Part shown: in pieces, positions 31,669-48,342 of the stretch | Layout of the letters: the number at the start of each line of letters is the position of its first letter | Position numbering within the stretch: position 1 is the first letter of the stretch | Assembly: GCA_045594645.1 (NCBI GenBank) | Contig: JAZNYY010000043.1 | Span: forward strand, 3,562-67,561 | Origin: Candidatus Fimenecus sp. | GTDB taxonomy: Bacteria > Bacillota > Clostridia > Oscillospirales > Acutalibacteraceae | Reading direction: 5' to 3' | DNA: 64,000 nucleotides | Translations under genes and position numbers: made by a program | The notes under the pieces: model-generated | The model's input: the letters and a program-made list of their open reading frames with translations, nothing else | Database searches by the model: none | What the model was told of the DNA's origin: nothing

Positions 31669-32292
31669 ATGAGTACACCCATTTCAACAAGACTTGTAAC
31701 CTTGAGAAAAGATAAAAATTTAAGTCAGAAAGAAGCCGCGGCGGCTCTTGGCGTTTCGCAGGGACTTTTATCGCACTACGAAAAAGGTATTCGCGAATGC
31801 GGACTTGATTTTTTGTGCCGTGCCGCAACCTTTTATGATGTAAGCTCGGACTACCTTTTAGGCCTTTCTGACACAAAAATGATGTCTGACGCGCTTTTTG
31901 CCGAAGATGAAATCCCGCAAGACAGCGAAATGAGAATGAGTACAATTTTCCGTTCATCAGTTTATCTGCTTGACCGTTTGGGCTCATTCGGCAGAAATTA
32001 CGGAAGCAAAATCAGAGCAATTTATATTCTGACCATTTACAAGGTTTATCTTGCGGCACTCTCGCAAGGCGCATTGCCCAATCACGAGCTGGCTAAAAAG
32101 GATTTATCGCCCTACCTTTCAACCATAACCATTGACAATATTATCAACAGTTTAACCTTTGAAGGTGACGCGAAACCAAAAAGAAGCGAGCACCTGCCAA
32201 AGACAATGGACACAATTATTAAAGAAGCCACAAAAATTATTGAAAAAGAAGTTGCAAGAGTTAACAGAATTGTAAACAGACAATCAAAGTAA
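31669..32292 (+). CDS. XRE-family HTH transcriptional regulator with C-terminal helical domain
   Basis: The HTH is LRKDKNLSQKEAAAALGVSQGLLSHYEKG. The gene is divergent from the phosphatase gene. Confidence 0.75.
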   Translation: MSTPISTRLVTLRKDKNLSQKEAAAALGVSQGLLSHYEKGIRECGLDFLCRAATFYDVSSDYLLGLSDTKMMSDALFAEDEIPQDSEMRMSTIFRSSVYLLDRLGSFGRNYGSKIRAIYILTIYKVYLAALSQGALPNHELAKKDLSPYLSTITIDNIINSLTFEGDAKPKRSEHLPKTMDTIIKEATKIIEKEVARVNRIVNRQSK

Positions 32293-41272: not shown

Positions 41273-43357
41273 TTAAAGAATACTGAAATTCACAACAAGT
41301 GCCGCGAATACGATTGAAACCATTGAAAGAAGCTTGATGAGGATATTGATTGCGGGGCCCGATGTATCTTTGAACGGGTCGCCTACTGTATCGCCCACAA
41401 CCGCTGCCTTATGCTGTTCACTACCCTTACCGCCGTGAACACCTGATTCAATATATTTCTTTGCATTATCCCAAGCACCGCCTGAGTTTGACATATAAAC
41501 CGCCATTAAGAAGCCTGTAACGGTTGCGCCTGCAAGCATACCCACAACGCCCTTATAGCCAAGCACAATACCTACAACAATCGGAACTGCGATTGCAATA
41601 ACTGTTGGGAGCACCATTTCACGAAGGCTTGCCCTTGTGCAAAGGTCAACGCAAGAAGCGTAGTCGGGCTCTGCTTCACCCTCCATAAGACCTGTGATTT
41701 CTTTAAACTGACGGCGAACCTCTTTAACAACGCTCTGTGCCGCTTTGCCCACAGAATCCATTGTAAGTGCCGCAAACACAAAGGGAAGGCACGCACCCAC
41801 GAAAAGTCCGATAAGAACTACGGGATTGATAATATCAAAGCTTAAATCTGCATTGGGATTAATTGACTTAACCTTGTCAACATAAGATGCAATAAGAGCT
41901 AAAGCTGTGAGAGCCGCTGAACCGATTGCAAATCCCTTGCCCGTTGCGGCAGTTGTATTGCCGAGAGCGTCAAGAGCGTCTGTGCGTTCTCTTACCTCAG
42001 GCTCAAGCCCTGCCATTTCGGCAATACCGCCCGCGTTATCAGCAACGGGGCCGTAAGCATCTGTAGCCAAAGTAATGCCGAGAGTTGAAAGCATACCAAC
42101 CGCAGAAAGTGCAATACCGTAAAGTCCCATTGAAGCACTCTCGCCACCGCCCGATACAAAGTAAGAAACAAGAACACTGACTGCAACAATCACGATTGGC
42201 ATTGCAGTTGATTTCATACCGAGACCAAGTCCGCCAATAATGATTGTGGCTGAGCCTGTTTCAGAAGTTGAAGCCAATTTTTTTGTGGGCTTGTAGCTGT
42301 CAGATGTATAGTATTCAGTCGATTTACCGATAAGCACGCCCGCTAAAAGTCCCGAAACAATAGCAACATAAAGACCAAGATTTTCTTTTCCGAGTACAAG
42401 CCATACAACAGGCAGAGCAATAATTGCAATTGCAATTGCACTCAAATTCGTACCACGGCTGAGTGCTTTAAGAAGCTGTTTCTGGTCAATGCTTTCGCCT
42501 GTACGCACAAAGAATGTACCCACAATTGACATTACAATACCGAGCGCCGCCAAAAGCATTGGCACTGCCATTGCATTAAAGCTACCGTGGAATGCAGAAA
42601 CACCAAGGGCTGCCGCTGAAATTACCGAGCTTACATACGATTCATAAAGGTCTGCACCCATACCTGCAACATCGCCAACATTGTCGCCAACATTATCGGC
42701 AATAACGGCGGGGTTACGGGGGTCATCCTCGGGAATTCCTGCCTCAACCTTACCAACAAGGTCCGCACCTACATCTGCCGCCTTGGTGAAGATACCGCCA
42801 CCTACACGAGCAAAAAGCGCCATTGAAGACGCACCCATACCGAATGTGAGCATTGTGCTTGTGATTGTTGCGGGGTCATTAATACCGAAAACAAATCTTA
42901 AAAGCAAGAACCAGATTGAAATATCAAGAAGTCCGAGTCCTACAACGGTAAAGCCCATAACGGAGCCTGCAGAGAATGCCACACGCAAGCCTCTGTTCAA
43001 GCCCTCGCGACAAGCGTTTGCTGTTCTCGCATTTGAGAACGTTGCAATTTTCATACCTACAAAGCCTGAAAGTCCTGAAAAAAATCCGCCCGTGATAAAG
43101 GCAAAGGGCACATACCAAGTGAGAAGCCCCGCCAATGCCATACCGCAGAGAATTAGGAACATTCCGCCAAATAATATTGAAACCACCGTATACTGACGCT
43201 TTAAATACGCATTTGCACCTTTACGGATTGACTGCGAGATTTTTTGCATTTTTTCTGTACCCTCTGAAAATTTTAGCACCTTTTTTGCAGTGAACAACGC
43301 AAATAAAAGTGCCAATACCGAGCCTACGAATGTGAGCAAAACAAGATATTTTTCCAC
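41273..43357 (-). CDS. hppA: Membrane-bound cation-translocating pyrophosphatase (K+-dependent type)
   Basis: 694 aa with about 16 TM helices. The motifs GGGIFTKAADVGADLVGK, DNVGDNVGD and GNTTAATGKGFAIGSA are present; Ala rather than Lys in GNTTAA marks the K+-dependent clade. Confidence 0.95.
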   Translation of the reverse strand: MEKYLVLLTFVGSVLALLFALFTAKKVLKFSEGTEKMQKISQSIRKGANAYLKRQYTVVSILFGGMFLILCGMALAGLLTWYVPFAFITGGFFSGLSGFVGMKIATFSNARTANACREGLNRGLRVAFSAGSVMGFTVVGLGLLDISIWFLLLRFVFGINDPATITSTMLTFGMGASSMALFARVGGGIFTKAADVGADLVGKVEAGIPEDDPRNPAVIADNVGDNVGDVAGMGADLYESYVSSVISAAALGVSAFHGSFNAMAVPMLLAALGIVMSIVGTFFVRTGESIDQKQLLKALSRGTNLSAIAIAIIALPVVWLVLGKENLGLYVAIVSGLLAGVLIGKSTEYYTSDSYKPTKKLASTSETGSATIIIGGLGLGMKSTAMPIVIVAVSVLVSYFVSGGGESASMGLYGIALSAVGMLSTLGITLATDAYGPVADNAGGIAEMAGLEPEVRERTDALDALGNTTAATGKGFAIGSAALTALALIASYVDKVKSINPNADLSFDIINPVVLIGLFVGACLPFVFAALTMDSVGKAAQSVVKEVRRQFKEITGLMEGEAEPDYASCVDLCTRASLREMVLPTVIAIAVPIVVGIVLGYKGVVGMLAGATVTGFLMAVYMSNSGGAWDNAKKYIESGVHGGKGSEQHKAAVVGDTVGDPFKDTSGPAINILIKLLSMVSIVFAALVVNFSIL

Positions 43358-43553
43358 ACTACTATCTCCTTTAATTAAAATGTATAGGTATAATTATATA
43401 CTTTGCCGAAAGATTGTCAACCATTTAACAATTATTTTACGCAAGTTTGTGAAATTTAAACAAATAAAAATTGCACTACTCCCCTAATAATGTGTCAAAT
43501 TTTAGCGAAAAATGAAGTTTTGTCATGTGTTTCCTGCATTTTATATAAAAACA

Positions 43554-43590
43554 GTTAGTGTGCCTCATTTGTTTAAAGAGGCACACTAAC
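43554..43590 (-). terminator. Intrinsic terminator after the repeat-protein gene
   Basis: A 13-bp stem pairs gttagtgtgcctc with gaggcacactaac. On the minus strand it is followed by TGTTTTTA. Confidence 0.7.
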
Positions 43591-43613
43591 TATACATCGC
43601 AAATAGTAACACC

Positions 43614-44003
43614 CTATTTTGTTTTCTGTAACTTCTTCTTTCTATAATATTCTTTATAGTATTGCTTTCGTTTTTCGTGAATATCAGGGTTTTCTTCATA
43701 ATATCTTTTCTGATATTCTGCCAGTTTTTCTTTGTTTTCAGCTTGATATACCTTTTGATACTCTGCAAGCTCCGCTTTGTGCTCACTGCGGTATTTTTTC
43801 TGATATTCTCTCACCTTTTGAGGTGCTTCGCTATTTTCTGCAAGGTATTTTTTACCTCTCTTTGCGTATTCCTCTTTATGCTCGGCATAATACTTTTGCT
43901 TGTACTTTTTCACTTGCTCACGATGCTCTGAATACCATTTTCTTTGATACTCCCGCCGTTTTTCTTTAAGCTGCAATTCGGTTCCTGCAATTTTCTGTGG
44001 CAC
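43614..44003 (-). CDS. Highly basic tandem-repeat protein (about seven ~15-aa Y-x3-Y-x-E-[HN]-K-E repeats)
   Basis: A GTG start at 44003 lies 8 nt after the RBS GGTGGAG. The ORF-track N-terminal extension (44004-44105) covers the promoter and operators. Repeats include YQRKWYSEHREQ, YKQKYYAEHKEE, YQKKYRSEHKAE, YQKVYQAENKEK and YQKRYYEENPD. Confidence 0.6.
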   Translation of the reverse strand: MPQKIAGTELQLKEKRREYQRKWYSEHREQVKKYKQKYYAEHKEEYAKRGKKYLAENSEAPQKVREYQKKYRSEHKAELAEYQKVYQAENKEKLAEYQKRYYEENPDIHEKRKQYYKEYYRKKKLQKTK

Positions 44004-44037
44004 AATTACCACTCCACCTATAGATACATACAAATTG

Positions 44038-44114
44038 GTAAACAAATTGTTTACTTTGATAATTATAGTAAACAGATTGTTTATTGTCAAGTAGAAAGTA
44101 AACATTTTGTTGTA
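44038..44114. promoter_or_regulatory. Three 17-bp operator repeats with exact 30-bp phasing
   Basis: O1 at 44038-44054 is gtaaacaaattgtttac, a perfect palindrome. O2 at 44068-44084 is gtaaacagattgtttat. O3 at 44098-44114 is gtaaacattttgttgta. Confidence 0.75.
44062..44090 (-). promoter_or_regulatory. Consensus sigma-A promoter for the repeat-protein gene (TTGACA-17-TATAAT)
   Basis: On the minus strand the -35 is at 44090-44085 and the -10 at 44067-44062. The 17-nt spacer is exactly operator O2, and O1 covers the expected +1 region. Confidence 0.7.
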
Positions 44115-44139
44115 TGATTGAAACAGAGGAGGGAGCGTT

Positions 44140-44355
44140 ATGGATTACACAAAAAGACTTTATGATTTAAGAACTGACAACGATTACCGGCAAGAAGACA
44201 TTGCCGAATATCTGCAGATAACCAAGCAAGCATATGGAATGTATGAAAACGGCAAAAGAAATCTTTCAATTGATTATCTTATAAAACTGAGCAAATTTTA
44301 CGGTGTTTCTACTGATTTCATCTTGTGCCTCACTGACAATCCTGAAATAAAATAA
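44140..44355 (+). CDS. Small XRE-family (Cro/CI-type) HTH repressor
   Basis: 71 aa reading LRTDNDYRQEDIAEYLQITKQAYGMYENGKR, with no peptidase or dimerisation extension. The RBS GAGGAGGGAG lies upstream. Confidence 0.85.
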   Translation: MDYTKRLYDLRTDNDYRQEDIAEYLQITKQAYGMYENGKRNLSIDYLIKLSKFYGVSTDFILCLTDNPEIK

Positions 44356-44394
44356 AAAACTGACCTGTGAACACACGCAGGTCAGTTCTCTTTT
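44354..44394. terminator. Bidirectional terminator (XRE / holin convergent)
   Basis: aaaaaa-ctgacctg-N10-caggtcag-ttctctttt. Confidence 0.75.
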
Positions 44395-44402
44395 ATATTG
44401 TA

Positions 44403-44648
44403 TTATTCACTTTTTTTAATCTGCTTAACCACCTGATTACCGTAAACCGCCGTACCTGTTACAAGTACACCCTGCACAACACTTTCAGGTGAAAATCCCA
44501 TAATGGCAACAGCCCCAATTATTCCAAAGCCTAAAAGTATAAGCGGAATATATTTATGGGGAATCTTCTCGGTATTTTTAATTATCATACCAATCACATT
44601 AAGCACGGGAATAAGCAAAAGTGCATTTTCTGTTATATATTCAAGCAT
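44403..44648 (-). CDS. Phage holin (2-TM, Hol118/phage_holin_5-like)
   Basis: 81 aa from MLEYITENALLLIPVLNVIGMIIKNTEKIPHKYIPLILLGFGIIGAV.. to a charged C-terminus KQIKKSE. The RBS is GGAGGAA. Confidence 0.75.
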   Translation of the reverse strand: MLEYITENALLLIPVLNVIGMIIKNTEKIPHKYIPLILLGFGIIGAVAIMGFSPESVVQGVLVTGTAVYGNQVVKQIKKSE

Positions 44649-44662
44649 TTTGTTCCTCCAAA

Positions 44663-44920
44663 TTATGACACGAGAGAACTCACAAGCACACCGCAAAGAG
44701 CCGCTATAAGTGCCACAACAGCCTTATCCCAAAGCCAGCCCGGACGCTTTTTCAAAGTCTCAATGCTCTCTTTGAGTTCCCCCAAGGTAACAAGCATACT
44801 GTCAAGCTTGGTAGTGCTTGTAACCTGTTCAAGTGTCACATCATTCACTTTTTTATAAAGAATTTTCACATCGGCTTCAATGGCATCAACGCGATGATTA
44901 AGAATTTCGTTTTCAGTCAT
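44663..44920 (-). CDS. xhlA: XhlA-family phage lysis accessory protein
   Basis: 85 aa with an N-terminal coiled coil (HRVDAIEADVKILYKKVNDV), RPGWLWDK, and a single C-terminal TM helix, matching the PBSX XhlA architecture. It overlaps the lysin stop by 8 nt. Confidence 0.75.
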   Translation of the reverse strand: MTENEILNHRVDAIEADVKILYKKVNDVTLEQVTSTTKLDSMLVTLGELKESIETLKKRPGWLWDKAVVALIAALCGVLVSSLVS

Positions 44921-45794
44921 TAACTACACCCTTTTTAATATCATCACGATGAACAAACCCCGTTACATATTTGCCGATGGGCTTGCGCTCAACATTTTTG
45001 AGAGAATTTGTAACTCTGTATCTTGCCTCAAAATAAATTCCGTCATAAATATAATAAGTACCGCTGATATAGTTTGAGACCTTGTCGGTATAAGCACTTG
45101 AATAAAGTCTTGCATTTTTAAGCACGACCTTCTGCCCTGCCGCAAAGCCTCTCTTGGGCGGTGTTGCCTCAATCTCAGCACCATAGCCGTTAAGACCGTT
45201 ATATTTCATAATTGCAGGGTAATTTTTGTATGACTCATCAAGGTCAACGCGACCTTCAATGCCGTCCACATTACCCTTTGAGGATTTCTGCCATATTCCG
45301 TAAGGCTTTTGGAATGTTGGTTTATCGCTCCACTGAGCAAGCCAGATATCGTATTTTTCAAAAATCTCGTCGGTGAAATAATTTTCAAGCCAATGCTTGT
45401 TAGCATAAATGCACACGTAGTAGCCATAAGACTCCATTTTTTCACAAAATGCCTTTGCTATTGCCGAAATCTTCTCCTTACCCAGCTCAGCAATTTTGCT
45501 ATATTCCATATCATAAGCAATTGGGTATTCAAACTTTTTACCCTTAAGCTTTGAGTGACAATGCTCTGCCTCTGCAACAGCCTCTTCGGGTGTTAAAGCA
45601 TATGCAAAATGATAGGCACCAACGGCGATACCCACCTTGCGAGCCGCAGGATAATTCGTTCTGAAATACAAATCAAACCCCTTTGTACCATAAGTTGCAC
45701 GAAGCATTGCAAACTGAATTCCCGCATTGCGTACAAGCGACCAGTTAATATCGCCCTGCCAGCGAGATACATCTATTCCTTTATATACAGCCAT
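44913..45794 (-). CDS. GH25 muramidase endolysin with C-terminal SH3b-like wall-binding domain
   Basis: It starts MAVYKGIDVSRWQGDINW, has the D-x-E region IAYDMEYS, and carries a C-terminal SH3b-like segment (GQKVVLKNARLYSSAY..YYIYDG). There is no signal peptide. Confidence 0.9.
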   Translation of the reverse strand: MAVYKGIDVSRWQGDINWSLVRNAGIQFAMLRATYGTKGFDLYFRTNYPAARKVGIAVGAYHFAYALTPEEAVAEAEHCHSKLKGKKFEYPIAYDMEYSKIAELGKEKISAIAKAFCEKMESYGYYVCIYANKHWLENYFTDEIFEKYDIWLAQWSDKPTFQKPYGIWQKSSKGNVDGIEGRVDLDESYKNYPAIMKYNGLNGYGAEIEATPPKRGFAAGQKVVLKNARLYSSAYTDKVSNYISGTYYIYDGIYFEARYRVTNSLKNVERKPIGKYVTGFVHRDDIKKGVVND

Positions 45795-45816
45795 AATATC
45801 AACTCCTTTATTTTTA

Positions 45817-47517
45817 TCAATTCTGTCCATACAATGCAGTGACAATTGTATCCTTGATAACAGTCATTCCGGCTTTATTTGGGTGCGAGCCACTTTGCTC
45901 AACATCATTAGCTTCTAAATAACGAATTGGAATATACAGCAACCCATAATGTTCACAAATGGTTGATATCATATTTTTTATATTGTTGTAACAATTATAT
46001 GCCGACACGCAAACAATTTGAGCATGTGGGTTATATGTCAATAAATAATCAATAAGATAACAATATGCCGGCGCAAACGATTGCAAATCTTCTTCTGTCC
46101 ACTCAGAATATTTAGGCTCACCAATATCAACTGAGGCATTATAATCATTGACTCCGCCGAATATAAAAATCAAATCGGGCTTTATTCCAACGGCATTACC
46201 TTCTCCAAGATGTACTTTTGCACGATTTACAAACGATGTCGCGTCACCCCTCGGTGCATTTGGGCTATTGCAAACACAAGAGCCACTATAGCTCTCATTG
46301 CAAAGCAGTGAAAGTTGCTTTTCTTTGGAAAATTGCCACCACCATGTATCTTTTACGGACTCTACATCATTTGATTTACTTTGAGTTTCACTGTTCCCAT
46401 ACCAAGTCGCATTGTTTTCAGGCAACCAGCCCTCATAAGTTGAAAATGAGTCACCGATTACGGCAAAAGAAGAAATAACCTTTCTGCTTTTTATCTCGGA
46501 TATATTCTCTTTTATCTCGGTGATTTCTTTGTCTTGCAAGTCTGCACGGGGAGTTCTGACTGTGAATTCTCCACCGTAAGAGTTACCCCAATCAAAACCT
46601 GTGAATGTCGCTTCCATTCCCGCACCGGAATTGGCGATTATCTGTCTTAAATATCTCGCTTTTACAACTGCGTTGTCATACTTACATTGCATAACACGAT
46701 TTGTTGTGTCCGTAGTATAGAAAACCAAGCCTACTGTATTGCTCAATTCTCTATTAATTGGAATAGGCTCACCACAATTAAGTGTGCCGTCTTTCAAATA
46801 TGTTATTGTTGGAAATACACCCTCTGCAACTGCTGTATCAAGAGAAATTATCGCATAATAGAATGTGTCATCCTCGATTTGAAATTTTGGTGTAAATGTT
46901 CCAATATAGGTTGGCTCATCAAAAAACAATGCTGTTTTCGCATAAGCCAAGTCATACCGATATTCTTCATTAGACTTATTCTCAAACATAAAAGTTGCAT
47001 CGTAAAACTCGGCAGGCATCTCACCCTTTTCTCCTTGTATTCCTTGCTCTCCTTTATCTCCCTTGTCACCTTTATCCCCCTTGAATGTGCCAAGTCGGAT
47101 TGCTTCAAGCAAGGCATTGATTGAAAAATCATTGACTTTACAAAGTGTATTGTCAGTGTCGGGTGAGTAATCAAAAGTAAGACAAAACTTTCGGGGTTTG
47201 ATTATCTGAATAGTGTTGCCGTCTGCATCAATTGCTACAATATTAAAATAACATTCAGTTCCTTTAAGAGAACTCATTGAAACAGGAATTGCGTATGTGA
47301 TAGTATTATCTGCCGTATTCAGTTCAAGATATTCTGTTCGCACCTTATTGCCCATAAGTGAACGGTATTCAATATAATAACGATAATCGCCCAGATAAGC
47401 CTCGTCAATTTTAAATTTCAACACTGTTGCGTTGTGTTCCCACATTACCCCCGCGTTTTCAACATATTCCGTATTGTTATCGGGGGTTATATCAATAGAA
47501 ATAATTTTATTCTCCAT
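45817..47517 (-). CDS. Phage tail-fibre/baseplate-like protein: N-terminal beta domain + collagen triplets + C-terminal SGNH/GDSL esterase
   Basis: GDKGDKGDKGEQGIQGEKGE supplies the Gly-X-Y repeats. SGNH blocks are present: I AVIGDSFSTYEGW, III FIFGGVNDYN, V GSHPNKAGM. The N-terminus has no hydrophobic leader. The BppU-like assignment of the N-terminal domain is tentative. Confidence 0.7.
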   Translation of the reverse strand: MENKIISIDITPDNNTEYVENAGVMWEHNATVLKFKIDEAYLGDYRYYIEYRSLMGNKVRTEYLELNTADNTITYAIPVSMSSLKGTECYFNIVAIDADGNTIQIIKPRKFCLTFDYSPDTDNTLCKVNDFSINALLEAIRLGTFKGDKGDKGDKGEQGIQGEKGEMPAEFYDATFMFENKSNEEYRYDLAYAKTALFFDEPTYIGTFTPKFQIEDDTFYYAIISLDTAVAEGVFPTITYLKDGTLNCGEPIPINRELSNTVGLVFYTTDTTNRVMQCKYDNAVVKARYLRQIIANSGAGMEATFTGFDWGNSYGGEFTVRTPRADLQDKEITEIKENISEIKSRKVISSFAVIGDSFSTYEGWLPENNATWYGNSETQSKSNDVESVKDTWWWQFSKEKQLSLLCNESYSGSCVCNSPNAPRGDATSFVNRAKVHLGEGNAVGIKPDLIFIFGGVNDYNASVDIGEPKYSEWTEEDLQSFAPAYCYLIDYLLTYNPHAQIVCVSAYNCYNNIKNMISTICEHYGLLYIPIRYLEANDVEQSGSHPNKAGMTVIKDTIVTALYGQN

Positions 47518-47761
47518 ACTTTTCTCCTTTATAATAGGTTTTTAAAAGCGATGCGGTTTGTTTAAGCTCCCGTTTGATTTCGTAGAACTTACGAAGCTCC
47601 CCTTCAAGCTTGATAACCGCATCTGTGTCCCCCGAGTTTTTAGCCTTTTTGATTGAATTTTTGCAGTTGTTGATAAACAAATCCTGCAATTCAGCGTGAG
47701 ACTCATATTCTTTTCCCAAATCAAAAAGAGACATATTTTTAGTTTTTGAATTTTCTGACAT
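47507..47761 (-). CDS. Hypothetical small helical protein (phage-island)
   Basis: 84 aa, predicted all-helical and charged. It overlaps both neighbouring genes, which suggests coupling. No family was recognised. Confidence 0.45.
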   Translation of the reverse strand: MSENSKTKNMSLFDLGKEYESHAELQDLFINNCKNSIKKAKNSGDTDAVIKLEGELRKFYEIKRELKQTASLLKTYYKGEKYGE

Positions 47762-48128
47762 ATTCCAGTAATTCCTCCGTTGATTGTGGAAGCAAAATTT
47801 TATCGTACATCAAAACATATTTCAGTGCCATTTCGAGTTTCTTGCGAATATTTTCAAGATTTCTGTAAATGCTTATGTGCGACACATCATATTTTTTTGC
47901 CAGCTCCCTTAACGGAACTTCATTGTACCAATGTGCCGTTGCAAGATTGCGTTCATATTCCGTGAGTTCATTCTGCATCACACTTTTGACGATTTCAATC
48001 AGTTTTTTCTGTCTGTTGTAAATAAGATATTTTGTTCCGTCTTTGACTTGCCCGCCCGACAAGTCAACATAGTCAGTAAGAAAATCAAATTCCTCAACTG
48101 AAAATTCAGATACCTGAACATTCTGCAT
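47739..48128 (-). CDS. Sigma-70 region-4-like / ArpU-Xpf-type phage late-gene transcription factor
   Basis: 129 aa. LTEYERNLATAHWYNEVPLRELAKKYDVSHISIYRNLENIRKKL resembles a sigma region 4.2 HTH. Confidence 0.6.
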   Translation of the reverse strand: MQNVQVSEFSVEEFDFLTDYVDLSGGQVKDGTKYLIYNRQKKLIEIVKSVMQNELTEYERNLATAHWYNEVPLRELAKKYDVSHISIYRNLENIRKKLEMALKYVLMYDKILLPQSTEELLEYVRKFKN

Positions 48129-48172
48129 AGTATAAATCCGCCCCTTTCAAAAATCTTGTTCATCAAAAAAAT

Positions 48173-48200
48173 AAAACGCAGATGAAAAATCGTGCGTTTT
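48173..48200 (-). promoter_or_regulatory. Leader hairpin + U-tract (possible attenuator) between promoter and sigma-like gene
   Basis: The minus strand reads aaaacgca-cgatttttcatc-tgcgtttt followed by ATTTTTTTG. Confidence 0.45.
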
Positions 48201-48212
48201 CAAATTATTTAT

Positions 48213-48226
48213 CGAACATTTGTTCG
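48213..48226. promoter_or_regulatory. LexA operator (Cheo box) CGAAC-N4-GTTCG
   Basis: The sequence cgaacatttgttcg has perfect arms. It lies 13 nt downstream of the -10 hexamer. Confidence 0.7.
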
Positions 48227-48239
48227 CCTCGCATTTATT

Positions 48240-48268
48240 ATTGTAGCAACATATTTTAATGTTGTCAA
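48240..48268 (-). promoter_or_regulatory. Consensus-like sigma-A promoter of the island operon (TTGACA-17-TACAAT)
   Basis: On the minus strand the -35 is at 48268-48263 and the -10 at 48245-48240. Confidence 0.7.
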
Positions 48269-48342
48269 GAAAAAAGTAAAATTATCTATATACTAAAAGA
48301 AAAAATAATTACTGATAAGATTGTAAAATCGCAGTCAGTATA

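Follow-up and report, generated by a model that had tools for sequence, protein, structure and literature searches.

ImmR, the repressor of ICEBs1, and Xre of PBSX are B. subtilis proteins that act on multiple palindromic sites lying between the repressor gene and a repressed divergent promoter, and both are autoregulated. The locus described here, in a 64,000-nucleotide stretch of a Candidatus Fimenecus genome (the window), shows the same arrangement: multiple palindromes separate the gene for a 71-aa XRE protein from a divergent promoter that it would repress, and autoregulation is presumed here as well. The DNA-binding domain of ImmR (7t8i) is also the closest solved structure to the XRE protein. 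The C-terminal domain of ImmR is cut by the ImmA protease and ImmR controls the excision genes of its element, whereas the XRE protein of the window has neither attribute; here the target is a single gene that varies between loci, referred to as the cargo gene, and the locus is chromosomal.

The OR1-3 operators of lambda, 434 and P22 are three sites of about 17 bp and graded symmetry between back-to-back promoters, and the locus is reminiscent of them in this respect, in the fold and recognition-helix register of its regulator and in the placement of the weakest site over the regulator's own promoter. The phage operators are spaced by 23-24 bp, those of the window by 30 bp, and O2 fills the promoter spacer exactly instead of overlapping a hexamer. 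Of the attributes of a lambdoid switch the locus has the three tandem operators, but there is no Cro or other antagonist regulator, no C-terminal domain and no phage or prophage immunity region, and O1 is dispensable in many loci. RstR, the CTXphi repressor, is a further regulator with three operators between divergent genes. The RstR family (NF041951) is the best NCBIfam match of the XRE protein (E 9e-13), but the score of 48.4 bits falls below the cutoff of 80, so that the protein is not assigned to the family, and there is no filamentous-phage context at this locus.

CylR2 of E. faecalis and the controller proteins C.AhdI, C.BclI and C.Csp231I are single-domain XRE proteins of 66-80 aa that bind promoter palindromes as dimers. 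The XRE protein resembles them in size and organisation, yet no cytolysin, CylR1 or restriction-modification genes accompany it; controller proteins are moreover usually encoded upstream of and co-directionally with their target and act first as activators, whereas the cargo gene here is divergent. Rco of the plasmid pLS20 is an XRE-type regulator that acts through one set of operators both to repress a strong divergent promoter and to control the weak promoter of its own gene; the two promoters overlap, an Rco tetramer bridges two distant operators by looping the DNA, and repression is lifted by an anti-repressor together with peptide signalling (PMC4207663). The locus shares with Rco the combination of a strong divergent promoter and a weak promoter of the regulator's own, but its promoters are back-to-back and the anti-repressor and signalling partners of pLS20 are not seen. 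The mechanism is thus of a well-known kind, represented by Xre of PBSX, ImmR, RstR, CylR2, Rco and the C proteins. A full-text literature search found no description of the cassette itself; papers on C. thermocellum DAP-seq and T. denticola TrtA were considered and set aside, their content being unrelated.

Table 1. Features of the locus in window coordinates, followed by the paralogous XRE genes of the same genome in contig coordinates
Feature	Position	Strand	Description
Probable intrinsic terminator of cargo gene	43554..43590	-	13-bp stem (43554-43566 / 43578-43590), 11-nt loop
Cargo gene	43614..44003	-	129 aa; GTG start 44003; RBS AGGTGGAG at 44019-44012
O1	44038-44054		GTAAACAAATTGTTTAC; perfect palindrome, 8-bp arms; about +1 to +17 of cargo transcript
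-10 box of cargo promoter	44067-44062 (44062..44067)	-	TATAAT; consensus scan; TATAAT in 43/56 loci
O2	44068-44084		GTAAACAGATTGTTTAT; core operator, base for base the 17-nt spacer of the cargo promoter
-35 box of cargo promoter	44090-44085 (44085..44090)	-	TTGACA; consensus scan; TTGACA in 47/56 loci
O3	44098-44114		GTAAACATTTTGTTGTA; perfect left half, degenerate right half; centre about -19 of inferred XRE promoter
Inferred -10 box of XRE promoter	44113-44118	+	TATGAT; TAnnnT at fixed position in 55/56 loci
RBS of XRE gene	44126..44135	+	GAGGAGGGAG; read from sequence
XRE/HTH_3 gene	44140..44355	+	71 aa, single domain; PF01381 (HTH_3), 58 bits against cutoff of 23, residues 7-60
Bidirectional terminator of XRE gene and convergent holin gene	44358..44387		12-bp stem, plus-strand T-run
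XRE paralogue L086	C61:2707-2907		64% identity, R34; same geometry on GTAACC..GGTTAC
XRE paralogue L087	C44:20485-20676		more distant; geometry clearly same, unrelated palindrome
XRE paralogue L088	C36:5067-5261		more distant; geometry clearly same, unrelated palindrome
XRE paralogue L089	C66:3754-3948		CCCCnnnnGGAG-like repeats; similar look, geometry less clear
XRE paralogue L090	C43:78370-78549, outside window		more distant; geometry clearly same, unrelated palindrome

The features of the locus are collected in Table 1. One genome per species was scanned, which gave 80 XRE loci, nearly all of them from Acutalibacteraceae, Oscillospiraceae and related uncultured Clostridia, and 55 homologous loci together with the window make up the comparison set of 56. 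The first-pass annotation of this DNA had described three 17-bp operators of declining symmetry, and their coordinates and sequences proved exact; O1 is the perfect palindrome it was said to be, laid out as GTAAACAA-A-TTGTTTAC with no mismatch between the arms, and O3 is always the least symmetric of the sites. The operators start 30 bp apart in the window. The exact 30-bp phasing that had been read from this stands up between O2 and O3, which start 30-31 bp apart across the comparison set, and breaks down between O1 and O2, since O1 is offset by 27-32 bp in the 40 loci that have it and is missing from the other 16. The interval between the end of O3 and the ATG of the XRE gene at 44140, previously given as 26 nt, is 25 nt.

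When the whole 64-kb window was scanned on both strands, 12 matches to the operator were found at up to three mismatches against 3.8 expected, and O1-O3 were the only copies with none or one. Given this background rate, the occurrence of O2 and O3 at exact offsets of +30 and +60 from O1 is not due to chance, and the trio is found at the equivalent place in homologous loci of other species. A scan of the 1.84-Mb genome (G000) located two further, isolated sites with at most one mismatch. The first lies within a 373-aa ORF. The second, GTAAAAAGTTTGTTTAC, at positions 31017-31033 of contig C59 (1501-1517 of locus L004), reaches into the beginning of a gene whose product is longer than 500 aa, in a divergent intergenic region, and lacks the invariant C6 of the half-site. 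Both look like chance occurrences rather than extra members of a regulon, and for the C59 site this is probable.

The promoter of the cargo gene, TTGACA-17-TATAAT, scores 12/12 and is the sole match of this quality in a consensus promoter scan of positions 43400-44800. As had been proposed, O2 is identical to the 17-nt spacer of this textbook minus-strand promoter and O1 covers the expected start of the cargo transcript, which would fall at about 44054-44056, 6-8 nt past the -10 box and on the first bases of O1. The same account could define no good promoter on the plus strand, and here it needs amending, as a conserved TAnnnT -10 element, TATGAT in the window, overlaps the right end of O3; its accompanying suggestion that the XRE promoter may be weak agrees with the lack of a usable -35 box, the hexamer at 17 nt being AGTAGA (44090-44095). 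Two other plus-strand candidates were rejected: TTGGTA-17-GATAAT (44035-44063, 9/12), with O1 as its spacer, has a -35 that is not kept even in 94% relatives, and TTGTCA (44084-44089) would be separated from TATGAT by a 23-nt spacer. Where the two transcripts start, and in which direction the genes are regulated, is deduced from position alone. Flanked by its own promoter and the terminator at 44358-44387, the XRE gene is monocistronic; at this terminator, an A-run on the plus strand before the stem supplies a T-run on the minus strand. The terminator of the cargo gene, whose loop exceeds the 8-nt limit of the terminator scan, was read from the sequence; its stem is followed by TGTTTTTAT on the minus strand.

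Wherever the XRE protein is at least about 64% identical, the upstream 130 nt superimposes nearly base for base on the window. The spacer of the cargo promoter is 17 nt long and is itself an operator-like near-perfect palindrome in all 56 loci, and in 37 of these the promoter scores 12/12. O3 has a good left half throughout, a perfect right half in none of the 56 loci, and a plus-strand TAnnnT fused to that right half in 55 (TATAAT in 20, TATCAT in 15, TATGAT in 10); in one clade O3 is degenerate or lost and the cassette persists. Five relatives with 86-100% XRE identity keep the half-sites, both hexamers of the cargo promoter, the whole of O3 and the plus-strand -10 invariant, with free variation in the linkers and in the central bases of O1 and O2. 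These patterns of conservation suggest that the core of the design is O2 within the promoter, with O3 as a frequent addition and O1 as an option. Obligatory cooperativity on one face of the helix fits badly, because the spacing of O1 differs by half a helical turn between loci. Sampling of 200 genomes from the family turned up a close homologue of the XRE gene in only 6, which makes the cassette accessory and patchy in its distribution. A separate clade (L066-L083), with an XRE protein about 50% identical and the helix CNRQVYARYERG, carries the operator GTACCATATGGTAC in a TTGACA/TATAAT spacer. There the RBS of the XRE gene directly abuts the -35, and for this reason the XRE promoter must lie upstream and overlap the cargo promoter face to face.

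The operator half-site is a 6-bp element, GTAAAC in the window, and is followed by a variable centre. All operators within the locus of one genome share one half-site, and half-sites differ by lineage, falling into the classes GTAAAC, TGAAAC, TCAAAC, TTAAAC and GTAACC, which are sorted by residues 29 and 34 of the XRE protein. They occupy the first and the sixth position of the recognition helix that AlphaFold2 predicts (residues 29-36, KQAYGMYE). Lys at residue 29 goes with ..GTTTAC, that is with outer ..AC, in 29 of 32 cases, Ser with GTTTCA in 7 of 7, Gly with GTTTGA/GG/GC in 8 of 8 and Thr with GTTTAA in 6 of 7, the seventh having one half-site of each kind; the single Pro is paired with GTTTAG. 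At residue 34, Arg is found with GGTTAC (8/8) and Met or Leu with GTTTAC-type sites (46/47). Residue 29 thus tracks the outer operator bases and residue 34 tracks base 5. In the complex of the 434 repressor with its operator, Gln28 and Gln33 contact the outermost and inner operator base pairs. A gap-free alignment places K29, Q30 and M34 on what we take to be Gln28, Gln29 and Gln33 of the 434 repressor, using a 434 sequence whose 28% identity equals the Foldseek value for 2or1, and Arg34 would stand opposite the G of the new C:G pair, as one would expect.

On the protein tree residue 29 changes four times and residue 34 twice, so that the independent events are few, and an independent-pairs sign test on the covariation has just one or two independent pairs and hence no power. 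The case therefore consists of a multi-state, structurally sensible and exception-poor pattern with no significance value behind it. This covariation of half-site bases with recognition-helix residues argues strongly that O1-O3 are binding sites of the adjacent 71-aa XRE protein, which is how the repeats had been interpreted from the outset. Further support comes from the C61 paralogue of the same genome, which has Arg34 and is found with GTAACC..GGTTAC operators. The repeats might instead be bound by another factor or be structural features of the promoter, with the XRE gene merely adjacent. Such an explanation would have to accommodate operator bases that covary with two recognition-helix residues of the XRE protein and a linkage of gene and site that is invariant in 56 loci, and it is regarded as extremely improbable.

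The AlphaFold2 model of the XRE protein (pLDDT 92) comprises helices at residues 3-13, 18-25, 29-36, 44-54 and 58-61, of which the second and third are predicted to form the helix-turn-helix. The protein amounts to a DNA-binding domain only, ending 10 residues past helix 5; neither Pfam nor the model gives a C-terminal oligomerisation or self-cleavage domain, and there is no sensor domain. The best Foldseek match is the DNA-binding domain of ImmR (40% identity, TM 0.82-0.89), and others are DdrO, P22 c2, the 434 repressor (2or1, 28% identity), SinR, CylR2, C.AhdI, C.BclI and C.Csp231I. NCBIfam antitoxin models score far under their cutoffs, and with no toxin co-transcribed with the XRE gene the locus does not have the make-up of a HigA/HipB system. 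Restriction or modification genes do not adjoin the XRE gene, here or in the loci examined, nor does a gene for an ImmA-type metalloprotease, the neighbours in the window being the cargo gene and a holin gene. Hundreds of relatives of the protein are found in metagenomes. Elsewhere in the window, at 31669-32292, a 207-aa ORF encodes an N-terminal XRE domain that is 34% identical to the 71-aa protein.

It is proposed that the locus is a tight, self-limiting XRE repressor cassette on a very strong promoter, a reading that we consider likely since O2 in the promoter spacer and O1 at +1 to +17 occupy positions of steric repression and O3 a position of autorepression. XRE dimers would bind the 17-bp palindromes, and a dimer on O2 would exclude RNA polymerase from the consensus sigma-A promoter. 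O1 could strengthen the repression by blocking or by cooperative binding, and with O1 and O2 occupied the very strong cargo promoter would be silenced. The XRE gene itself would be read from a weak promoter without a -35, back-to-back with that of the cargo gene, and at high concentration the protein would stop its own synthesis through O3, settling at a low and steady level. Autorepression is the simplest role for O3, because the conserved -10 overlaps its right end in 55 of the 56 loci, and its conserved weakness fits a site that is filled last. Overall, the XRE protein most likely keeps the cargo promoter shut. Since it has no sensor domain, relief may come about by an anti-repressor, by proteolysis, by dilution or by rare stochastic escape. 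O2, with its centre at about -49 of the XRE promoter, might possibly also activate that promoter, by analogy with Rco of pLS20.

The first-pass annotation had gone further and seen in the locus an OR1-3-style bistable switch. In a switch like that of lambda or 434, XRE bound at O1 and O2 would repress the leftward promoter and activate its own PRM-like promoter, which O3 would then shut at high levels of the protein, with two stable states as the outcome. The three operators do lie between back-to-back divergent promoters, and O3, always the weakest, sits at about -19 of the XRE promoter, a position comparable to that of OR3 at PRM in lambda. The XRE promoter has no -35 and could need an activator, and Rco of pLS20 both activates and represses its own weak promoter while repressing a strong divergent one (PMC4207663). 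However, the opposing promoter encodes no second regulator that could act as an antagonist, as the cargo protein has no HTH and its counterparts elsewhere are unrelated and mostly secreted proteins. A 71-aa repressor with neither a cooperativity nor a cleavage domain, the loss of O1 from 16 of the 56 loci and the persistence of the cassette in the clade with a degenerate or missing O3 are likewise at odds with such a switch, and negative autoregulation alone would lead to one stable state. With a Cro-like antagonist, a sensor domain and a phage immunity setting all missing, the claim of bistability is not supported, and this alternative is judged improbable beside the proposed repressor cassette.

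The cargo gene of the window encodes a very basic, K/E/Y-rich and all-helical repeat protein for which AlphaFold2 predicts five long helices (pLDDT 87, pTM 0.35). It belongs to no Pfam, NCBIfam or PADLOC family. It has a weak match to phrog_36724 (E 9.5e-6), to which no function is assigned, and tblastn aligns it at 37-43% identity to unannotated hypothetical proteins of phages, the matches being of a low-complexity-like nature; a word-indexed protein search gave one partial relative. Orthologues of the cargo protein are confined to loci whose XRE protein is 92% identical or more. The pyrophosphatase gene hppA (41273-43357) separates the cargo gene from the murT-gatD operon, as in loci L005 and L096; it is absent from that place in L095. 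In an empty-site comparison G131, the only other genome of the genus searched, had no hppA and no DNA match to the flank. On the other side of the cassette, at 44403-48270, a phage-type lysis block without virion genes encodes a holin, an XhlA-like protein, a GH25 lysin, a protein with collagen repeats and a GDSL esterase, and a small sigma-like protein, and it is kept beside the cassette in close relatives.

Given this neighbourhood, the XRE protein might serve the phage-derived lysis island beside it as an immunity or maintenance repressor, in which case the cassette would be what is left of a lysogeny or moron module. The window and loci L005, L095 and L096 have the order cargo-XRE-holin-GH25-fibre in common, also where the flank lacks hppA; the closest solved relative is the repressor of ICEBs1, relatives at 45-52% identity occur in phages and plasmids, including YonR of SPbeta, and the cargo has the weak phage relatives described above. 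Yet no relative of the XRE protein was found in an IMG/VR scan, and, the two isolated chance-like sites apart, no copy of the operator exists in the rest of the island, the window or the genome. The lysis operon runs toward the XRE gene on the strand of the cargo gene, and the cassette is insulated from it by the bidirectional terminator; read-through past 44358-44387, a possibility, would give RNA that is antisense at the XRE gene but has the sense orientation of the cargo gene. XRE proteins of 64-86% identity with the same promoter design moreover have no phage genes nearby, their genes adjoining those for rpoC, citrate synthase, DAHP synthase, a P-type ATPase or Band_7/NfeD proteins, and the 86% relative has Band_7/NfeD neighbours and a different cargo. 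A repressor of the island is accordingly rated as quite unlikely.

The divergent gene is not conserved between loci. Elsewhere the cargo encodes BspA-type LRR proteins, LRR proteins with choline-binding or dockerin domains, GH25 with fn3, NlpC/P60 with ricin lectin and Flg_new, DUF6273 with Big_2, TM2, DUF6809, an ABC ATPase and several small proteins of no assigned kind, and a crude check assigns a signal- or membrane-like N-terminal segment to 25 of the 38 cargo proteins that reach 80 aa. Downstream neighbours vary across loci as well, GH38 being another of them. Where related species have both the XRE gene and its downstream neighbour in common, homology breaks off at the cargo -10 or a few bases away from it, and the cargo sides are unrelated (L012 against L013 and L007, L014 against L015, L044 against L046 and L053). 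In these alignments the edge of the cargo promoter behaves as a recurrent exchange boundary. The O2-promoter-O3-XRE block would accordingly form the conserved cassette, behind which different cargo genes are placed with the break at the -10 box; judged by sequence, dozens of uncultured gut Clostridia carry it as a reusable repressor module ahead of differing genes, most of which encode cell-surface proteins.

Patchiness of this kind (6/200 genomes of the family) suggests gain and loss, and could be reconciled with an establishment timer like that of the controller proteins, in which entry of the cassette into a naive cell would give one burst of cargo expression until the slowly made XRE protein has accumulated. 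The protein matches the restriction-modification controllers C.AhdI and C.BclI in size and fold, as well as the PADLOC Control_protein model (E 1e-7), and a weak autoregulated promoter is paired with a strong target promoter. The loci, however, carry no restriction-modification or toxic genes, a single burst would be of no obvious use for cargo that consists mostly of surface proteins, and in related species the cassette stays while the cargo is swapped. The timer is very unlikely beside the proposed repressor cassette.

Five paralogous small XRE genes are present in the same genome, and the geometry that four of them share, C66 being the less clear case, consists of a -10, a 17-nt palindromic spacer, a -35, a second copy of the palindrome about 30 bp further on and then another -10. 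The operators of the C61, C44, C36 and C43 paralogues are GTAACC..GGTTAC (C61), ATCTGTAATACAGAT, ACTCAAnnnTTGAGT and TAGAACAAnnTAAnCTA, and the cargo genes encode small membrane, zinc-ribbon or unassigned proteins. The paralogues, compared in sequence and layout, look like orthogonal copies of one design. At the C61 locus (L086:1250-1400) the cargo leader is about 100 nt long and contains a long GC-rich hairpin of the GTCTATCC...GGATAGGC type between operator and RBS. A second cassette also occurs in L095, the 94% relative, 3.3 kb from the first (1106-1694), where a 75-aa XRE protein is encoded divergently from a DUF6809 protein, the cargo type of the Fimenecus-like loci L022-L028.

Taken by itself the locus is ordinary, an XRE repressor, probably autorepressing, on a divergent promoter. 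At the level of the family the features of interest are the identity of operator and promoter spacer, the two-residue code, the several copies per genome and the exchangeable, mostly surface-directed cargo. The set constitutes a natural series of repressors and operators, with particular operator bases following one or two helix residues, and such pairs could supply orthogonal, compact and tight promoters for genetically difficult gut Clostridia. Setting the cassette apart from the neighbouring lysis island also allows a sharper reading of that island. Tentatively, and with considerable doubt, these elements may be joined into a single picture: gut Clostridia would have a large and so far undescribed family of self-contained 'gatekeeper' cassettes, in each of which a single-domain XRE protein is combined with one operator that doubles as the spacer of a consensus promoter and another that merges with the XRE -10. 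The cassettes would have diversified into mutually orthogonal pairs, several per genome, set by a code of residue 29 for the outer dinucleotide and residue 34 for base 5, and would serve as fixed docking points for exchanged surface and accessory genes. If this holds, the surface variants behind them would be tightly silenced and perhaps expressed rarely and stochastically. The findings suggest that in uncultured Oscillospirales many surface proteins, among them BspA-type and choline-binding proteins and cell-wall hydrolases, lie behind consensus promoters that are held off by a sensor-less repressor.
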